From: a virus
Lineage: Duplodnaviria; Caudoviricetes
DNA: 30,280 nt
Reading direction: 5' to 3' (one strand)
Virus record (IMG/VR): IMGVR_UViG_3300023176_004599
Location: 1 to 30,280 of that record
In this document: piece after piece, positions 4,743 through 30,280 of the stretch
Layout of the letters: every line of letters starts with the position of its first letter
Numbering within the stretch: position 1 is the first letter of the stretch
Translations under genes and position numbers: made by a program
Notes under the pieces: model-generated
Told to the model about the DNA's origin: nothing
The model's database searches: none
Seen by the model: the letters and a program-made list of their open reading frames with translations, nothing else

Positions 4743-4749
4743 AAGCATT

Positions 4750-5013
4750 GAGGAGGCGACACACTGTGTTTAGCCAACGGATCTTGCTGGGGGAAACAAA
4801 CCAAAAGAGTGGGCTCTCCTGAGCTATTGGAACCCACGAGTATTGCTGAGTTAGTAGCCGTTATTGCAACTCAGTAGCTTGCGTTGAAAGCAGCGTTTAA
4901 AGGGGTACAGCACAACCGCCTCTACCTGAAAAGGTTTCGCTATAACGGTGCACACGGTGACGGGTAATGACGTCTTTGTCGTGCTTGGCCTGAATCAGGC
5001 TAAGTGCGACTTT
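4750..5013 (+). ncRNA. Putative structured ncRNA of unknown family
   Basis: GC-rich with no credible ORF. Closing helix GAGGCG 4753-58/CGCCTC 4917-22, 10-bp helix 4843-52/4868-77, pseudoknot 4857-64/4942-49, GAAA tetraloop hairpin 4924-35, 15-bp hairpin 4978-5010 with G-U pairs. Confidence 0.6.
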
Positions 5014-5050
5014 AGTTCATGGTAATAACTAGATTATAGAAGAAAAAAAT

Positions 5051-5093
5051 TCAACCGAACGATAGTGAGGTTGATGATGAACGTAGTTCATCA
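5051..5093 (+). other. Tandem mini-hairpins with DNA-type features (tandem GA pairs; C-GTA-G triloop)
   Basis: TCAACC-GA-AC-GATA-GT-GA-GGTTGA (5051-74) and TGATGAAC-GTA-GTTCATCA (5075-93). Confidence 0.5.
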
Positions 5094-5105
5094 GATACAT
5101 GATAA

Positions 5106-5297
5106 TTAAAATGTTTTCTTACCTTTAGCTTGATCTAACATCTGTTTCTCCTTTTCCTGTTTCTCTTTAAATGAGTCTAGTATCTCTTGTATCTGATATA
5201 AAGGCAATTGGTAGAGCTCTTTAATAGTAAAACTTCCTTGACTGTATATAACAATTTCATAGACCTGTTTTCGCAGGTTCTTTAATGTATCGTTCAT
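5106..5297 (-). CDS. gp51-like baseplate hub/tail assembly chaperone segment, probably the -1 frame extension of the upstream gene (frame open to about 5354)
   Basis: EIVIYSQGSFTIKELYQLP followed by a charged helix resembles gp51-like proteins; the frame stays open back through the T9 run of the upstream gene. Confidence 0.55.
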   Translation of the reverse strand: MNDTLKNLRKQVYEIVIYSQGSFTIKELYQLPLYQIQEILDSFKEKQEKEKQMLDQAKGKKTF

Positions 5298-5329
5298 ATC
5301 CTTTACAATTTTTTCAGGATCTTTTGATA

Positions 5330-11607: not shown

Positions 11608-12702
11608 ATGGCTCACTCAATTGATGAACTATTAAGCTCAGGTGCGCTCTCCGAAGAGGTTAGATCTTCAATCAGCGAAGCATGGGAAACTAAGCAAGCT
11701 GAACTACGTGAAGAAGTTGCTAGCGAACTACGTGAAGAATTTGCAGAACGTTATGAAAATGACAAAGCGCAAATCGTAGAAGCAATGGACACAATGATTG
11801 GCGAAGTTATTGCAAAAGAACTTGAAGAGTTCCAAGCAGACAAAGCCAAAGTAGTAGAAGATCGTGTTGAATATCGTAAGCATATGAAAGAACATGCAAA
11901 TGTTCTTGATGAGTTTGTGATGGAAACACTTCGCAAAGAAATTAATGAACTTCGCGAAGACCGTGAGGCACAAGACAAGAACATGGCCCAATTAGAAGGC
12001 TTTGTACTTGAACAACTTACTAAAGAGCTCAACGAGTTTCATGAAGACAAACGCTCACTAGTTGAAGCAAAAGTCAAAATGATTAAAGAAGGCAAACAAG
12101 TTATCGAGCAGACTAAACGTAAGTTTATTGAAAATGCTGCAAGCAAAGTTGAAAAGGTTCTTGAATCAACAATCAAGAGCGAACTAACATCTTTAAGAGA
12201 AGACATCCAAGTTGCTAAAGAAAACACATTTGGACGTAAAATCTTTGAAACATTTGCAGCAGAGTTTATGGGCAGCTACCTCAATGAAGGTACTGAAGTT
12301 GCTAAATTAAACAAAGCAATGGACAAACTAAAGTCACAGCTTGATGAAGCAAATAAAGCCGTAGTAGAGAAAGAAGTTCAGCTAACTGAATCAGCACGTA
12401 AAGCACGTATTGCAGCAGACCAAGCTGAGCGCAAGTCAATCATGTCAGAAATGATGAACCCGCTTTCAAAACAACAACGTGAAGTAATGGGCGCATTACT
12501 AGAGTCTACTAAAACAGCAGACTTACAGAATGCATTCAATAAGTATCTACCATCAGTATTGAAGGAAGATGCGAAACCACAAAAAACTAAGAAGGTGCTA
12601 AGTGAATCTACAAAAGAAGTCACTGGTGGAAAATCAACTGAAGCAGAAGCTGCGGTAGATACTAACATTGTTAACCTTCGCAAATTAGCCGGTATAAGTT
12701 AA
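11608..12702 (+). CDS. gp22: Prohead scaffolding protein (T4 gp22-like)
   Basis: Long acidic coiled coil between protease and capsid genes; C-terminal LRKLAGI. Confidence 0.8.
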   Translation: MAHSIDELLSSGALSEEVRSSISEAWETKQAELREEVASELREEFAERYENDKAQIVEAMDTMIGEVIAKELEEFQADKAKVVEDRVEYRKHMKEHANVLDEFVMETLRKEINELREDREAQDKNMAQLEGFVLEQLTKELNEFHEDKRSLVEAKVKMIKEGKQVIEQTKRKFIENAASKVEKVLESTIKSELTSLREDIQVAKENTFGRKIFETFAAEFMGSYLNEGTEVAKLNKAMDKLKSQLDEANKAVVEKEVQLTESARKARIAADQAERKSIMSEMMNPLSKQQREVMGALLESTKTADLQNAFNKYLPSVLKEDAKPQKTKKVLSESTKEVTGGKSTEAEAAVDTNIVNLRKLAGIS

Positions 12703-12713
12703 GGAGACCGAAA

Positions 12714-13874
12714 ATGGCAGACAACCTAATGGAAAATTGGGCAGAAACTAAAACAGCCCTAACAGACGGTCTAACTGGAACAAAGAAAAAAGTGATGGAA
12801 ACAACACTTGAAAACACTAAGCGTTACTTGTCAGAAAGTGCAAGTCCTGGTGCAACTCAAGCAGGCAACGTTGCAACACTTAACAAAGTGATTCTTCCAG
12901 TTATTCGCCGTGTGATGCCAACTGTTATTGCTAACGAGATCGTTGGTGTACAGCCTATGACAGGCCCAGTTGGACAAATCCACACACTACGTGTGCGTTA
13001 CGCTGAAACATTTGACAGCGCAACAGCAGGCGATGAGGCACTAAGCCCATTCCAAATCGCAACAGGTTACTCAGGTAATGCAACTACTAACCGTGCAGAC
13101 GCAACAGCGACTCTAGAAGGCACAGCTGGTAAGAAAATGAGTATCCAAGTCCTAAAGCAAACTGTTGAAGCTAAAACACGTAAGCTATCAGCACGTTGGA
13201 CTTTTGAGGCAGCACAAGATGCTAACTCAATGCACGGTCTAGACGTTGAAGCAGAAATCATGCAAGCACTTGCACAAGAGATTACTGCTGAAATCGACCA
13301 AGAGATCATCTCATCTCTATCATCGCTAGCAGGTTCAGCTACAGACACATACAACCAAGCTGGTGTAAGTGGTACTGCTACTTTTGTTGGTGACGAACAT
13401 GCAGCACTAGCAGTTCTAATCAACAAAAATGCAAACACAATTGCAGCACGTACACGCCGTGGCGCAGGTAACTGGGCAGTTGTAAGCCCAGACGTTCTAA
13501 CTGTTCTACAGTCAGCAACAACAAGCGCATTTGCACGTACAACTGAAGGTCCTTTCGAGGCACCAACAAACACAAAATTCGTAGGTACACTAAACGGTAC
13601 TATGCGTGTTTATGTAAACCAGTACGCAGCAAACGACGACATCCTAGTAGGTTATAAGGGTTCAACAGAAACAGACGCAGCAGCGTTCTATTGCCCATAC
13701 ATCCCACTAATGTCAAGCGGTACAGTACTAGACCCACAAACATTCGAGCCAGTTGTTAGCTTCATGACTCGTTACGGTTATGTGGAACTAAGCAACCAAG
13801 CATCATCGCTTGGTAACGCAGCAGATTACCTAAGTAAAATTGCTGTTACAACAAACAACCTATCATTCCAATAA
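12714..13874 (+). CDS. gp23: Major capsid protein (T4 gp23-like)
   Basis: IRRVMP, GVQPMTGPVGQI, VEAKTRKL, EITAEID, TRRGAGN, FYCPYIPL, MTRYG motifs; AAGGAG RBS. Confidence 0.97.
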   Translation: MADNLMENWAETKTALTDGLTGTKKKVMETTLENTKRYLSESASPGATQAGNVATLNKVILPVIRRVMPTVIANEIVGVQPMTGPVGQIHTLRVRYAETFDSATAGDEALSPFQIATGYSGNATTNRADATATLEGTAGKKMSIQVLKQTVEAKTRKLSARWTFEAAQDANSMHGLDVEAEIMQALAQEITAEIDQEIISSLSSLAGSATDTYNQAGVSGTATFVGDEHAALAVLINKNANTIAARTRRGAGNWAVVSPDVLTVLQSATTSAFARTTEGPFEAPTNTKFVGTLNGTMRVYVNQYAANDDILVGYKGSTETDAAAFYCPYIPLMSSGTVLDPQTFEPVVSFMTRYGYVELSNQASSLGNAADYLSKIAVTTNNLSFQ

Positions 13875-13890
13875 TAGGTTACAAATTAAG

Positions 13891-13917
13891 AAAAAAGGCA
13901 CTTCGGTGCCTTTTTTT
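13891..13917 (+). terminator. Rho-independent terminator with UUCG tetraloop
   Basis: AAAAAAGGCAC-TTCG-GTGCC-TTTTTTT. Confidence 0.92.
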
Positions 13918-13939
13918 GTGACTTTTTTTAAAAAAAGTG

Positions 13940-13968
13940 TTGACATTTGTTTCTGTATATACTATATT
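13940..13968 (+). promoter_or_regulatory. Strong sigma70-type promoter TTGACA-N17-TATATT
   Basis: Perfect -35 (13940-45), 17-nt spacer, -10 at 13963-68, A/T-tract UP-like element upstream. Confidence 0.8.
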
Positions 13969-13974
13969 ATAAAC

Positions 13975-14180
13975 ATAACAGAGACGACGGTCCGAGTTAG
14001 ATAGTGCAAGGAAGAGGAGTAGACAGGCTCCGAACTTGGCTAGTAGCTGTAGTAGCAGCGCATGAGCATGGAGACATGAAGATGCGTATTTTGGAAGTAA
14101 CTATCCGATGCTAGGCTCCTGGGTATATGACAGCGAGACTGTAAACCTAGGTTGAGGGTATTCTCGAGTCCCTCCTATCA
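13975..14180 (+). ncRNA. Putative structured ncRNA, domain 1 (pseudoknotted, unknown family)
   Basis: Helices 13992-98/14033-39, 14016-20/14027-31, 14040-45/14109-14, 14046-59 hairpin, CATG-GAGA-CATG, 14118-24/14145-51, 14154-58/14170-74; pseudoknot GATAGT 14000-05/ACTATC 14100-05; no credible ORF. Confidence 0.65.
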
Positions 14181-14183
14181 TAT

Positions 14184-14290
14184 ATTATAGTGTTTTAGTA
14201 TACACACCAGAGTAGATGCACCTACTTTCCTGTGCATAGGACAAGGGCCGAAAGGCTATCAAGTGAGTGTGTATACTAAAACATTATAAT
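14184..14290 (+). ncRNA. Putative structured ncRNA, domain 2: 24-bp stem capped by three hairpins, two with complementary loops
   Basis: 14184-207 pairs with 14267-290 (one G-U); loops ATGCAC (14216-21) and GTGCAT (14232-37); GGCC-GAAA-GGCT hairpin. Confidence 0.7.
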
Positions 14291-14322
14291 TGCTTTTCCT
14301 TTCAAATTGATAACTACAAAAG

Positions 14323-14347
14323 AGCTAGCCTTGTGCTAGTTTTTTTT
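14323..14347 (+). terminator. Rho-independent terminator
   Basis: GCTAGC-CTTGT-GCTAGT followed by T7. Confidence 0.75.
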
Positions 14348-14357
14348 GTCTCTATAC

Positions 14358-14365
14358 GATAAATA
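14358..14365 (+). promoter_or_regulatory. Late promoter GATAAATA
   Basis: NATAAATA upstream of ATG 14387. Confidence 0.65.
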
Positions 14366-14386
14366 TAATTAGTACGGAGACAAAAT

Positions 14387-14989
14387 ATGAGTTCGACAAA
14401 ATTTAATCAAGACTTAAATGTTACTGGTAATATCACATTGTCTGGTAATGTTACTGCAAATGGTAACGTTATATTGGGGGATGCAGATACAGACAGTATC
14501 AGTCTAACAGCAGACATTACTAGTAATATTGTTCCAAATACAAACGTGAGTTATGATTTAGGAACAAGTACTAAATCATGGCGTGAAGTTTTTACAAGCA
14601 AAATTAACAGTGTTACTGGAGATGATCTAGATATTCATAGTGGTAGTGATATTGCATTTTATCCCACAGGAAACATTTGGATTAAACAAGACACTAAACT
14701 TATATTCGAAGGCACTGTGCCAGACGATTATGAGATTAAACTACAAGCACTAGCAGCAACAGCAGATAGAAATATTATACTCCCGGATGAAGATGGAACA
14801 CTTGCTACTCGTGAATGGGTAAATTTAAATGGTACTGGTGGTAATTCTGTTGAAAGTTTTGACTTTGGTTATATAGATACAAACTATCATACTAGTGCAA
14901 CAGGATATCTATTATCTCTAGGATCCGATATTGATATGGGTTCATACGCTGCACCGAGTGCAACAACAGTTGACCTTGGGTCGATATAA
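14387..14989 (+). CDS. Virion structural / fibre-associated protein
   Basis: GDADTDSI...YDLG...WR module shared with the downstream fibre proteins; GGAG RBS. Confidence 0.65.
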   Translation: MSSTKFNQDLNVTGNITLSGNVTANGNVILGDADTDSISLTADITSNIVPNTNVSYDLGTSTKSWREVFTSKINSVTGDDLDIHSGSDIAFYPTGNIWIKQDTKLIFEGTVPDDYEIKLQALAATADRNIILPDEDGTLATREWVNLNGTGGNSVESFDFGYIDTNYHTSATGYLLSLGSDIDMGSYAAPSATTVDLGSI

Positions 14990-14992
14990 ATA
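14985..14992 (+). promoter_or_regulatory. Late promoter TATAAATA
   Basis: Exact consensus overlapping the upstream stop codon. Confidence 0.65.
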
Positions 14993-15019
14993 TTTTAAAA
15001 TAACTCTTTGGAGAAGAAA

Positions 15020-27950: not shown

Positions 27951-30280
27951 ACTCGACTTACTAAGCGGAAGAGTTAAAAAAGTTACAGGTACATCACTTG
28001 ATGCTAACCGCTATGATTTTTTAAACTTACAAAATGCAGAACCTGATGCAGGATTTCCTGCACAAACTAATAGTTTATTTGCTAGTACAAACACTGGTAC
28101 TAGAAGTTGGTTAACAACTAACAGCGCATTGTCAGGTTTAACAGTTTCTGCTAGTGATTTAAAAGTTGATGAAGATACAGTTTTTGTAGATACGTCAGGT
28201 TTTATTAATACTACTGCAAACAACTTACACCAAGTTTTGACAGATCTTGACGCAAACTTGGGTGCTACTACAGCAAACGCCTTGACTGCAGTTGTAACTG
28301 ATGGTACTATTGATGGTAACGGTACTACAGGCACGCCACTTAGCATTGGTCAAGGTGTGCGTACTACTGATGATCCATATTTTGCAGGACTACAAGTTGC
28401 ACCACAAGATGCAATTAGTGGTATTACATTGAGCAATCCTATTCGTGTTACTGTTTCAACAAGTCACGATTTAACTGACGGTGATTTAGTTACTTTTAGT
28501 GATATTGAAGGAACAACACAACTTAATGGTAATGATTATTATGTAGATGTTATTGATACAACTACAGTAGACTTATATAGTGACCAAGCACTTACTACTG
28601 GTATAGATGGAACTAGTGGCGGATATAGTTCATATACATCTGGAGGGTTTTTAATTGGTGGTGGATATAGATTTCCATCGCTAGACGGTACATCAGGAAG
28701 TTATTTAAAAACAGATGGACTTGGCCAACTTAGTTTTGATAGACCAGTTCAATATGGTGGTTCACAACCTACAAATCCAGACACTGGTGATTTATGGTAT
28801 GACAGCGTTACAGCACAAGACCTTCTTGTTTATAATGGTACACAGTTTATTAGTGCTACTGAAGGCGGAACACAAAGTGCATTTACACTAAGACAATTTG
28901 CAGGTGACGGTAGTACAACCGCATTTGACACACAAGCACCTTCGGTGCAAAAAGTACTTGTGTTCTTAAATGGTATTTTGCTTCGTTTAACAGACGACTT
29001 TACATTTAGTAATGGTATTATTACATTTAACAGTGCACCGTTAGCAAATGACACAATTGAAGTATTGCTTACTGGTGATGCTGACTTAGTTGGACTAGAA
29101 CTACTAGGTATTGCAAACCATGATTTAATTACAGTTGACGGAGCAGGAAATGTTACATTGTCAGGTGAGCTTGACATGGACGGAAACAAGATTATAAATC
29201 TTGGAACACCAACAATAACAACAGATGCAGCAACTAAAGCATATGTTGATGCACAAGCAGGTGCAGTAACAATCAATACTTCGGGTGATACTGGAACTGG
29301 TAGTGTACAAAGTGCAACACAAGTTCTTAATATTGCTGGTACAGCAAATGAAATTGAAACAACGGCAGCAAACCAATCAGTTACAATTGGATTACCAGAC
29401 GATGTAACAATCGGACAAGACTTAACAGTTACAAGAAACTTAATTGGTCCGAACTTATTTTCAGTCAATCCTGCAACAATAAGTGCAAGTACAGTAAATT
29501 ACACTGTTACTGTTGCTAGTGGAACATTGTATGGCGGCGGTACTGGAAATGTGTTTTACTTAGAAAACACAACTGAAGGCACAGCAAATACTGGTAACCC
29601 TGTGATAAATCTTTACAGAGGTAATACTTATGTATTTGACGTAAGTGATACAAGCAATAACGGACACCCGCTAAGATTTACAGCAGATGGTGGTACAACT
29701 GAATATACAACCGGTGTGACAACAAGCGGCACTGAAGGACAAGTAGGTGCTACTGTAACATTTGTTGTCCCATCAGATGCTCCTGCTAACTTACAGTACT
29801 ATTGTACAGTACACGGTACTGGAATGGGTAACTTAATTGCTACTAGATCGCTTGGTGGTACACTTATTATTTCAGGCGACTTACAAGTTGATGGATCGCA
29901 AACTGTTATTAATAGCACCGAACTGGTTATCGACGACAAAACTATTACAGTTGCAGAAGGTAGTGCAGATAAGGCAACAGCAAGTGGAAGTGGATTGCTT
30001 GTAGACTTAGGCACTGACGGATCAGCAAGTTTACTTTACACAAACAATGACAGATGGACATTTAACAATGCTCCGTATTTTAATACATTACGTTTACTTA
30101 CAACAGACGATTTAACTGGAAGTGACAACTATGCTTATAAAACTGTGTCAGTTACTGACACAGATAATATTTTTAGTTGGAGTGAAACTGGTAGTGTTGC
30201 AGCACCAAGTAATGTAGGAAACCTTACATTTGTGAGTGGCGGTGCTATAGATATTGACATTGACACAACACAGTATGCTA
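27943..30280 (+). CDS. Large mosaic tail-fibre/structural protein (3' truncated; absent from the supplied ORF track)
   Basis: ATG 27943 overlaps the upstream stop; reads MRKLDLLSGRVKKVTG... and I saw no stop before the window end (about 779 codons). Contains an FCCH-like beta domain (about 28415-28580), a DAATKAYVD motif and a cupredoxin-like domain (about 29590-29835). Confidence 0.85.
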   Translation, partial: MRKLDLLSGRVKKVTGTSLDANRYDFLNLQNAEPDAGFPAQTNSLFASTNTGTRSWLTTNSALSGLTVSASDLKVDEDTVFVDTSGFINTTANNLHQVLTDLDANLGATTANALTAVVTDGTIDGNGTTGTPLSIGQGVRTTDDPYFAGLQVAPQDAISGITLSNPIRVTVSTSHDLTDGDLVTFSDIEGTTQLNGNDYYVDVIDTTTVDLYSDQALTTGIDGTSGGYSSYTSGGFLIGGGYRFPSLDGTSGSYLKTDGLGQLSFDRPVQYGGSQPTNPDTGDLWYDSVTAQDLLVYNGTQFISATEGGTQSAFTLRQFAGDGSTTAFDTQAPSVQKVLVFLNGILLRLTDDFTFSNGIITFNSAPLANDTIEVLLTGDADLVGLELLGIANHDLITVDGAGNVTLSGELDMDGNKIINLGTPTITTDAATKAYVDAQAGAVTINTSGDTGTGSVQSATQVLNIAGTANEIETTAANQSVTIGLPDDVTIGQDLTVTRNLIGPNLFSVNPATISASTVNYTVTVASGTLYGGGTGNVFYLENTTEGTANTGNPVINLYRGNTYVFDVSDTSNNGHPLRFTADGGTTEYTTGVTTSGTEGQVGATVTFVVPSDAPANLQYYCTVHGTGMGNLIATRSLGGTLIISGDLQVDGSQTVINSTELVIDDKTITVAEGSADKATASGSGLLVDLGTDGSASLLYTNNDRWTFNNAPYFNTLRLLTTDDLTGSDNYAYKTVSVTDTDNIFSWSETGSVAAPSNVGNLTFVSGGAIDIDIDTTQYA

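Follow-up and report, generated by a model that had tools for sequence, protein, structure and literature searches.

The window analysed here is a single stretch of viral DNA, 30,280 bases long. It is a fragment of a T4-like jumbo myovirus with an estimated completeness of 8%, and its gene content includes a late sigma factor, portal, protease, capsid and tail genes. The late sigma factor gene, encoded by the phage itself, sits at 10-291. The gp23-like major capsid protein is encoded on the plus strand at 12714-13874 (PHROG 138, E 7e-104), and is about 70% identical to its counterparts in PA5oct/Paride-type jumbo phages. This gene is the 5' neighbour of an RNA unit of about 370 bases. Further long stretches without family-matched genes are found at 4743-5329 and at 27951-30280.

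The locus is no assembly artefact, since nearly identical copies (99.5-99.97%) are present in three further viral contigs. A pattern search of bacterial genomes gave 29 matches to the RNA unit, none of them full-length. When the unit was compared by blastn with 50,697 records of cultured phages, one 27-nt chance match was returned. A model (R1) had no matches in any of four cultured relatives, and it matched one of five partial viral records.

The capsid transcript ends in a bidirectional intrinsic terminator, a hairpin at 13890-13917 on the plus strand that was also picked up by a consensus scan. This is followed, on the same strand, by a sigma70-type promoter at 13940-13968, with its -35 element at 13940-45 and its -10 element at 13963-68. 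It reads TTGACA-17-TATATT, agrees with the consensus at 11 of 12 positions, and has a predicted start at about 13974-13976. One such site alone is at chance level, as shuffles contain 3.8 of them per 1.3 kb. Among 100 homologues of the RNA described below, 95 have a sigma70-type promoter just 5' of the RNA; shuffles give a mean of 5.3 and a maximum of 14, and 91 of the 95 promoters sit at one of three offsets. The conserved promoter sets the predicted start at the 5' end of the manA-like RNA.

No open reading frame of 50 amino acids or more lies wholly within the unit, and six-frame translation gives short frames only. A coding role was therefore rejected. The unit is closed by an intrinsic terminator at 14322-14347 on the plus strand, which is seen as a hairpin plus U-run in the fold; the consensus scan flagged the minus strand only. 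Next comes a T4-type late promoter motif, GATAAATA, at 14358-14365 on the plus strand, and then the next gene, which starts at 14387. The window has three matches to this motif, a number that alone is not above chance (25/100 shuffles); the other two are directly before the portal and baseplate-hub genes. The first-pass annotation had described a structured, non-coding unit with a host-type promoter, insulated between the capsid terminator and a late promoter, and in this it is borne out; the unit is also conserved.

The first part of the unit, 13976-14179 on the plus strand, is a diverged RNA of the manA family. An Rfam scan, which covered 13700-14600 of the window, matched 13977-14184 to manA (RF01745) over model positions 1-192 of 192, at 30.2 bits (E 8.9e-6). 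This is 25 bits below the Rfam gathering threshold of 55.2 bits. The helices P1 to P9 are found in the manA order: P1 at 13976-13999, P2 at 14000-04/14175-79, P3 at 14007-14038, P5 at 14046-56, P6 with its GAGA loop at 14071-74, P7 at 14091-14108, inner P8 at 14130-42 and P9 at 14154-74. P2 closes the domain, and P4 to P7 form a four-way junction. At least seven helices, the GAGA tetraloop and the 3' end had already been seen in the first-pass annotation, and all are present, with the helices now numbering nine. It had also taken the fold for a class that it did not recognise, a claim that by its own terms falls with a match to a known family: the first 205 nt are diverged manA.

Homologues were gathered in two ways, from the best 80 of 599 capsid-gene loci and from the first 120 of about 640 pattern matches; both samples are partial and biased towards the window's type. 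In two sets of 20 homologous loci, nine of the 40 (5/20 and 4/20) reach the Rfam cut-off, and 16 of the second set match RF01745 at E<=0.001. A profile gave 142 matches, of which 97 were distinct and full-length once duplicates and matches cut by contig ends had been dropped. A model built from 18 copies recovered all 100 input sequences, being the window, 96 of these 97, and three more. One model thus joins the window to the copies that do pass the Rfam cut-off, which means that the series is continuous.

In an unfitted MAFFT alignment of 18 copies, 24 of 33 predicted pairs show two-sided change. In the fitted alignment of 100 copies this rises to 54 of 59. There, 85% of cells are paired, against 33-46% for slid partners, a figure that the fitting inflates. 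P9 and P2 are the most conserved helices. The first 208 nt alone are not unusually stable compared with shuffles (z -1.35). The fold of the whole unit span has a z of -6.1, which is likely owed mostly to the terminator and to a second module (z -7.0), discussed below.

Kinship of this first domain with manA can be held with high confidence. It is a manA variant and not a curated member, because the architecture and both pseudoknots of the family are there and the score threshold and the 5'-UTR position are not. With manA as described in PMC2864571 it shares the nine-helix order, the GACG loop of P1, the closing P2 with P9, both loop-loop pairings and an aquatic T4-like phage setting. It differs in its J2/3 junction, which is GUGCAAGGAA where the model has GUGACUGAAUAA, and in having AGU/ACU for GGU/ACC in L5/L7. 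The window RNA, moreover, does not lead a metabolic gene but lies between a promoter and a terminator of its own, a second RNA follows it, and its carrier is of the PA5oct/Paride-related jumbo phage clade, not a cyanophage. In many copies (for example L113, L153 and L181, where such three-digit labels denote loci) the two outermost ends of the RNA, 5' and 3', seem to be paired with each other, one instance being AUAAGCAA with UUGCUUAU. By eye, this is an extra closing stem outside the Rfam model.

Two loop-loop pairings are present in the domain, and both covary. Loop L5 (14049-14053) pairs with L7 (14100-14104), which is SS_cons_1 of the manA seed. Loop L8 (CGAGA, 14134-14138) pairs with L9 (UCUCG, 14162-14166), which is SS_cons_2, and in the window this makes five Watson-Crick pairs. 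All four loops are on the plus strand. Among 54 distinct L8/L9 combinations, 27 have an exact complement of the L9 4-mer at L8 (mean 5.7, maximum 14, in 10,000 shuffles), and the L5 triplet finds its own at L7 in 27 of 38 (shuffled mean 10.7, maximum 20), where the L9 register was chosen after inspection of the data and the shuffles ignore relatedness. Crossed loop controls, at 0/52 and 8/53, are at chance. On a quick tree made without the loop columns, 38 of 53 clades that are uniform for the L9 triplet have its complement.

Many codes are in use. For L8/L9 these include CGAGA/UCUCG, AGGAU/AUCCU, AUGA/UCAU, CUGAU/AUCAG, CAGA/UCUG, AUGG/CCAU and GGU/ACC, and for L5/L7 AGU/ACU, GGU/ACC, UGU/ACA, UAU/AUA and UGC/GCA. 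Of 12 L9 triplet types, nine are matched in most of their copies and three fail, one apparently by a shift of register. An exact 3-base L8/L9 complement is absent from 27 of the 100 copies; matching is weak or absent in L037, L146, L170 and L226, and copies of the L037 type barely pair. Neither pairing is a new find: the original manA alignment (PMC2864571, supplementary file 5) marks both, and their presence here confirms that the RNA is kin to manA.

A different pseudoknot, 14000-05 with 14100-05, had been proposed for this domain and is rejected here. The bases are indeed complementary, but the 5' arm is a strand of P2 and is paired there in 96.6% of cells. Of 100 copies, 30 keep all six of the proposed pairs, every one of them among the 44 closest, and the pair at alignment column 191 fails in 41 of 84 copies under this proposal and holds in 78 of 85 under L5/L7. 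It does beat its shuffle (77.9 versus 70.8% paired), an effect of the constraint that L5 places on L7 and of the near-invariance of P2.

The unit contains a second RNA, which the first-pass annotation had missed. The 116 nt behind the first domain fold better than shuffles (z -7.0), and within them is a module of 107 bases, at 14184-14290 on the plus strand, that is not catalogued in Rfam. It is the only uncatalogued one of the unit's two RNAs; a scan at E up to 5 gave no match of note. A 24-bp stalk (14184-14207/14267-14290) encloses three hairpins: hairpin A at 14210-27, hairpin C at 14228-41 and a variable hairpin at 14246-57. The loops of A and C form a 6-bp loop-loop helix, 14216-21/14232-37.

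This module, called module 2 from here on, was searched for with three patterns. A loose first pattern had 25 matches, 20 of them real, every one behind manA-like RNAs. A pattern for the core had 65 matches, 64 of them real. A pattern free of loop constraints had 74 viral matches. Of these, 32 fill the stretch in permuted tmRNA genes that runs from the CCA end to the 5' G-run, 21 follow manA-like RNAs and 14 stand just 5' of a tRNA; seven are unclassified, and two of those look like chance. In other words, the other homes of module 2 adjoin tRNA and tmRNA ends. In L229-L293, many sister phages have circularly permuted tmRNA genes in which the spacer is module 2. The copy in the window is not in such a position, as ARAGORN makes no call in the window.

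In 23 hand-picked copies, 12 of 16 stalk pairs show two-sided change, while the core is near-invariant. The loop-loop helix is kept in every variant found (77 metagenome matches, five of them chance), with double changes at two positions (L320, L397, L429 and L433 at one, L448 at the other) and wobble changes at two positions as well (L356 and L384, and L411). The hairpin stems show one-sided changes only, and a few breaks. The loop-loop helix is therefore better supported than the stems.

The intervening sequence of permuted tmRNA genes is removed by tRNA processing enzymes (PMC11915505). By analogy, we infer that module 2 would be released in the window by the same tRNA-type processing. Its position is that of this intervening sequence in 32 of the 74 viral copies. 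Module 2 is unlike a mere tmRNA spacer in that it here follows a manA RNA and elsewhere precedes tRNAs, and a near-invariant core with a covarying loop-loop helix is not described for such spacers in the portion of PMC11915505 available to us. A role in stabilising, or as a processing aid, is a guess. Resemblances to HDV-like and pistol ribozymes and to the SRP Alu domain were judged by eye against consensus folds and found no Rfam support; the likeness to the SRP Alu domain would be a topological analogy only. A motif search of part of the supplementary files of PMC10690425 found neither of the unit's modules. Searches of the literature, largely that outside subscription, yielded no account of stand-alone manA units or of module 2. 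Module 2 is a candidate for a new family of small RNAs, one consistently linked to sites of tRNA-type processing.

Presence of the manA-like RNA behind the capsid gene is patchy. It is found at 18 of 50 sampled capsid loci with 1.3 kb of flank, and 41 of 65 copies with enough flank have a capsid gene at most 1.3 kb upstream, in a sample that was partly selected through that gene. Among capsid relatives whose flanks could be read, the five closest (88-91% identity) do not have the cassette. In L008, the capsid terminator is followed straight away by the late promoter of the same downstream gene as in the window. This makes the RNA unit an optional cassette at a variable site. The capsid neighbourhood is then probably a landing place rather than evidence of a joint function, because other elements, namely glutamine riboswitches and freshwater-2 leaders, are likewise present in some loci and absent from others at this site.

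The surroundings of the RNA vary in other ways. In L019, L031, L069, L077 and L130, a glutamine (glnA) riboswitch above the Rfam cut-off stands between the capsid gene and the manA-like RNA, and many loci have freshwater-2 leaders behind the manA terminator. A third conserved non-coding stretch, starting with CCGAACUGUAAC, is seen in L138, L209, L093, L207 and L226. It lies some 10-230 nt 3' of the manA-like RNA or module 2, and is followed by a leader and a gene whose product starts MQAQYF or MQANYI. L024, L146 and L175 share another structured-looking insert, unlike module 2, directly 3' of the manA-like RNA and before the terminator. L128 (1395-1881) has a manA-like RNA, a short ORF and a terminator-like hairpin, and then a tRNA-Trp/Pro/Met array. 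In L030 (4499-4570) and L102 (1388-1461), a tRNA-Gly follows the manA-like RNA without a gap, and the 3' end of the latter would therefore be set by RNase P cleavage.

Some expression data is available. Parts of 12700-15000 were found in 24 sequencing runs, 23 of which are recorded as RNA; these are mostly salt-marsh metatranscriptomes, and maybe from one campaign. At 80% likeness, all four RNA libraries examined have contigs over the manA body (13975-14180). These are mostly less than 95% identical and hence come from relatives, not from the window's copy. At the same likeness, library X16 has a piece of module 2 in a tRNA-leader context. At 95% likeness, X1 and X4 have mismatch-free capsid contigs that leave the manA part uncovered, where contig gaps are uninformative, and X2 has a 46-nt piece and X16 a 47-nt piece of module 2. 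Several contigs of relatives start at 13995-13997, preceded by adapter letters in two runs. These starts could be a processed end or a stop of reverse transcriptase, as neither ends nor strand nor level can be read from library contigs. A contig of low depth extends across the promoter region and may derive from DNA. Transcription of the unit, which the first-pass annotation had assumed, is therefore weakly indicated for the family by the contigs of relatives in all four libraries, and gains no support for the window's own copy.

Since 2010 the manA family has been classed as a candidate cis-regulatory riboswitch (PMC2864571), a view since repeated or refined (PMC9964418, PMC7779021, 10.1101/2020.02.04.933952). 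In July 2026, a preprint described RNA-only cages made in vitro (bioRxiv 10.64898/2026.07.01.735769). By cryo-EM, manA RNAs there form pentamer-based 8-, 10- and 60-mers; in the manA_A0F1 pentamer and 60-mer, different molecules contact each other through L5-L7' and L8-L9'. Assembly was shown in vitro, at about 3 mg/ml RNA and 10 mM Mg, and the part of the preprint available to us gives no natural role for the cages.

When helices are counted on the Rfam structure, the loops come out as the L5/L7 and L8/L9 of the preprint. The loop numbers used here appear to map onto those of the preprint through that structure, and the GAAA/GAGA loop of P6 agrees with the preprint's 'L6 GNRA'. The window RNA thus has the complementary L5/L7 and L8/L9 loops of the cage-forming A0F1 type, and a GNRA-type L6 as in the pho34 pentamer. 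The manA_A0F1 RNA was solved as a structure; the window RNA is known from sequence alone, which does not allow its stoichiometry to be predicted. There is also precedent in GOLLD and ROOL (PMC12286853), which are likewise phage-borne, often tRNA-adjacent and equipped with covarying kissing loops. These RNAs are several times longer than that of the window, and the Rfam scan matched neither.

We propose the following. The cassette is likely a diverged manA RNA and module 2 in one precursor of about 370 bases. Going by the type of promoter, it would be transcribed by the host polymerase, early in infection. The precursor would then likely be cut into two stable RNAs by the tRNA-type processing of the host, as is suggested by the same module being the excised spacer of permuted tmRNA genes. 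The L5/L7 and L8/L9 pairs would form between molecules, as they do in the published manA_A0F1 structure. The manA part would thereby likely act in trans, its copies joined loop to loop into pentamer-based cages. Such an assembly might resist nucleases and, by its multivalency, act as decoy or scaffold for some RNA-handling protein of the host while the cell is being taken over. This last step is the least certain and must be called doubtful. That a stand-alone manA RNA is present at the locus is quite probable; for the full mechanism of a two-RNA precursor with a manA part self-assembling in trans, we see the chances as evenly balanced.

The loop pairs need not join different molecules. In a free-standing monomeric manA RNA, L5/L7 and L8/L9 would be intramolecular pseudoknots, the RNA would bind a host or phage protein or a metabolite, and the cages would be an effect of concentration in vitro. 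The same loop covariation fits this as well, since inter- and intramolecular loop pairing leave the same trace in an alignment. The discoverers of the family drew both pairings as pseudoknots (PMC2864571), and the cages were made at around 3 mg/ml and vary from 8- to 60-mers. However, L5-L7' is intermolecular in both pentamers for which the preprint describes interfaces (bioRxiv 10.64898/2026.07.01.735769), and in ROOL and GOLLD the covarying loop pairs proved to be intermolecular (PMC12286853). We regard the monomer as possible, and somewhat unlikely.

A cis-acting leader or riboswitch, as catalogued, would control module 2 or the late gene at 14387. Rfam has the family typed as Cis-reg, as proposed in PMC2864571, and some copies do look like leaders. 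The closed fold has a terminator within about 70 nt behind it in 57 of 98 copies (a raw count, not corrected by shuffles). Among the other 41, six are followed by module 2 and two by tRNA-Gly, 18 sit 60-82 nt 5' of one gene without a terminator, four are about 20 nt before a start codon, and the remainder vary. The gene behind the 18 encodes a ssDNA-binding protein in the one case tested. These L089-type loci (18 of 100) have the manA-like RNA directly 5' of this gp32-like gene, and the end of the RNA there overlaps a motif that resembles a late promoter; this AAATA motif is found there in all 18, which speaks against a leader even in these. Downstream neighbours vary otherwise (freshwater-2 leaders, tRNA-Gly, module 2, other genes). 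The window itself lacks the potential 5' UTR position typical of the family: its manA RNA ends some 200 nt short of the gene, with a second RNA, a terminator and a distinct late-promoter motif in between. The promoter in 95 of 100 homologues and the terminator in 57 of 98 likewise argue against the catalogued role at this locus, where it is distinctly unlikely.

A tRNA or tmRNA-like RNA has a 7-bp acceptor, a 7-nt T loop and a CCA end. If the window RNA were a mimic of these, P2 stacked on P9 would be its acceptor and T arm, and it might engage synthetases, EF-Tu or the tRNA-cutting nucleases of host defence. P9 and P2 being the most conserved helices would suit this, as would the tRNA-Gly that directly abuts the RNA in L030 and L102, and the habit of module 2 of otherwise sitting beside tRNA or tmRNA ends. 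Against it, no such acceptor or T loop is found in the window RNA: P2 has 5 pairs, and L9 has 11-12 nt and is engaged with L8. The CCA end is not conserved, neither ARAGORN nor Rfam makes a tRNA or tmRNA call, and only 3 of 47 loci scanned have any tRNA. The resemblance to a tRNA T arm and 3' end that had been noted earlier is thus a loose one, and the suggested readings as tRNA/tmRNA mimic or ribozyme find no support in Rfam (to E 5) or ARAGORN. A tRNA or tmRNA gene in the window was rejected on the ARAGORN result, and a mimic is very unlikely.

That one module, more likely module 2, is a self-cleaving ribozyme that frees the RNAs from their precursor is highly improbable, for all its almost invariant core, covarying stalk, double pairing and constant place at processing junctions, since the 15 Rfam matches at E up to 5 include no ribozyme family, its strand order fits neither HDV-like nor pistol folds (by eye), and tRNA processing enzymes remove the spacer of permuted tmRNAs (PMC11915505).

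The manA family and both of its loop pairings had already been published. New here is the quantified covariation of the loop pairs that likely correspond to the cage contacts, and of the loop-loop helix of module 2. With its own promoter and terminator, the window RNA can hardly be a leader, which makes it a clean case for a trans-acting manA RNA. The 100 natural variants, with around ten loop codes, make it possible to test kissing within against kissing between molecules, and also whether cages form naturally.

Taken furthest, the self-assembling reading would mean that the jumbo phages of this clade build an early, RNA-only closed shell, with loop codes that drift from phage to phage so that each assembles only with itself, and that module 2 is a new class of mobile small RNA with a loop-loop contact of its own. 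We consider this speculative and rather unlikely as a whole. If true, a gene for an RNA shell would be parked behind the gene for the protein capsid, and module 2 would be moving among tRNA, tmRNA and manA junctions.
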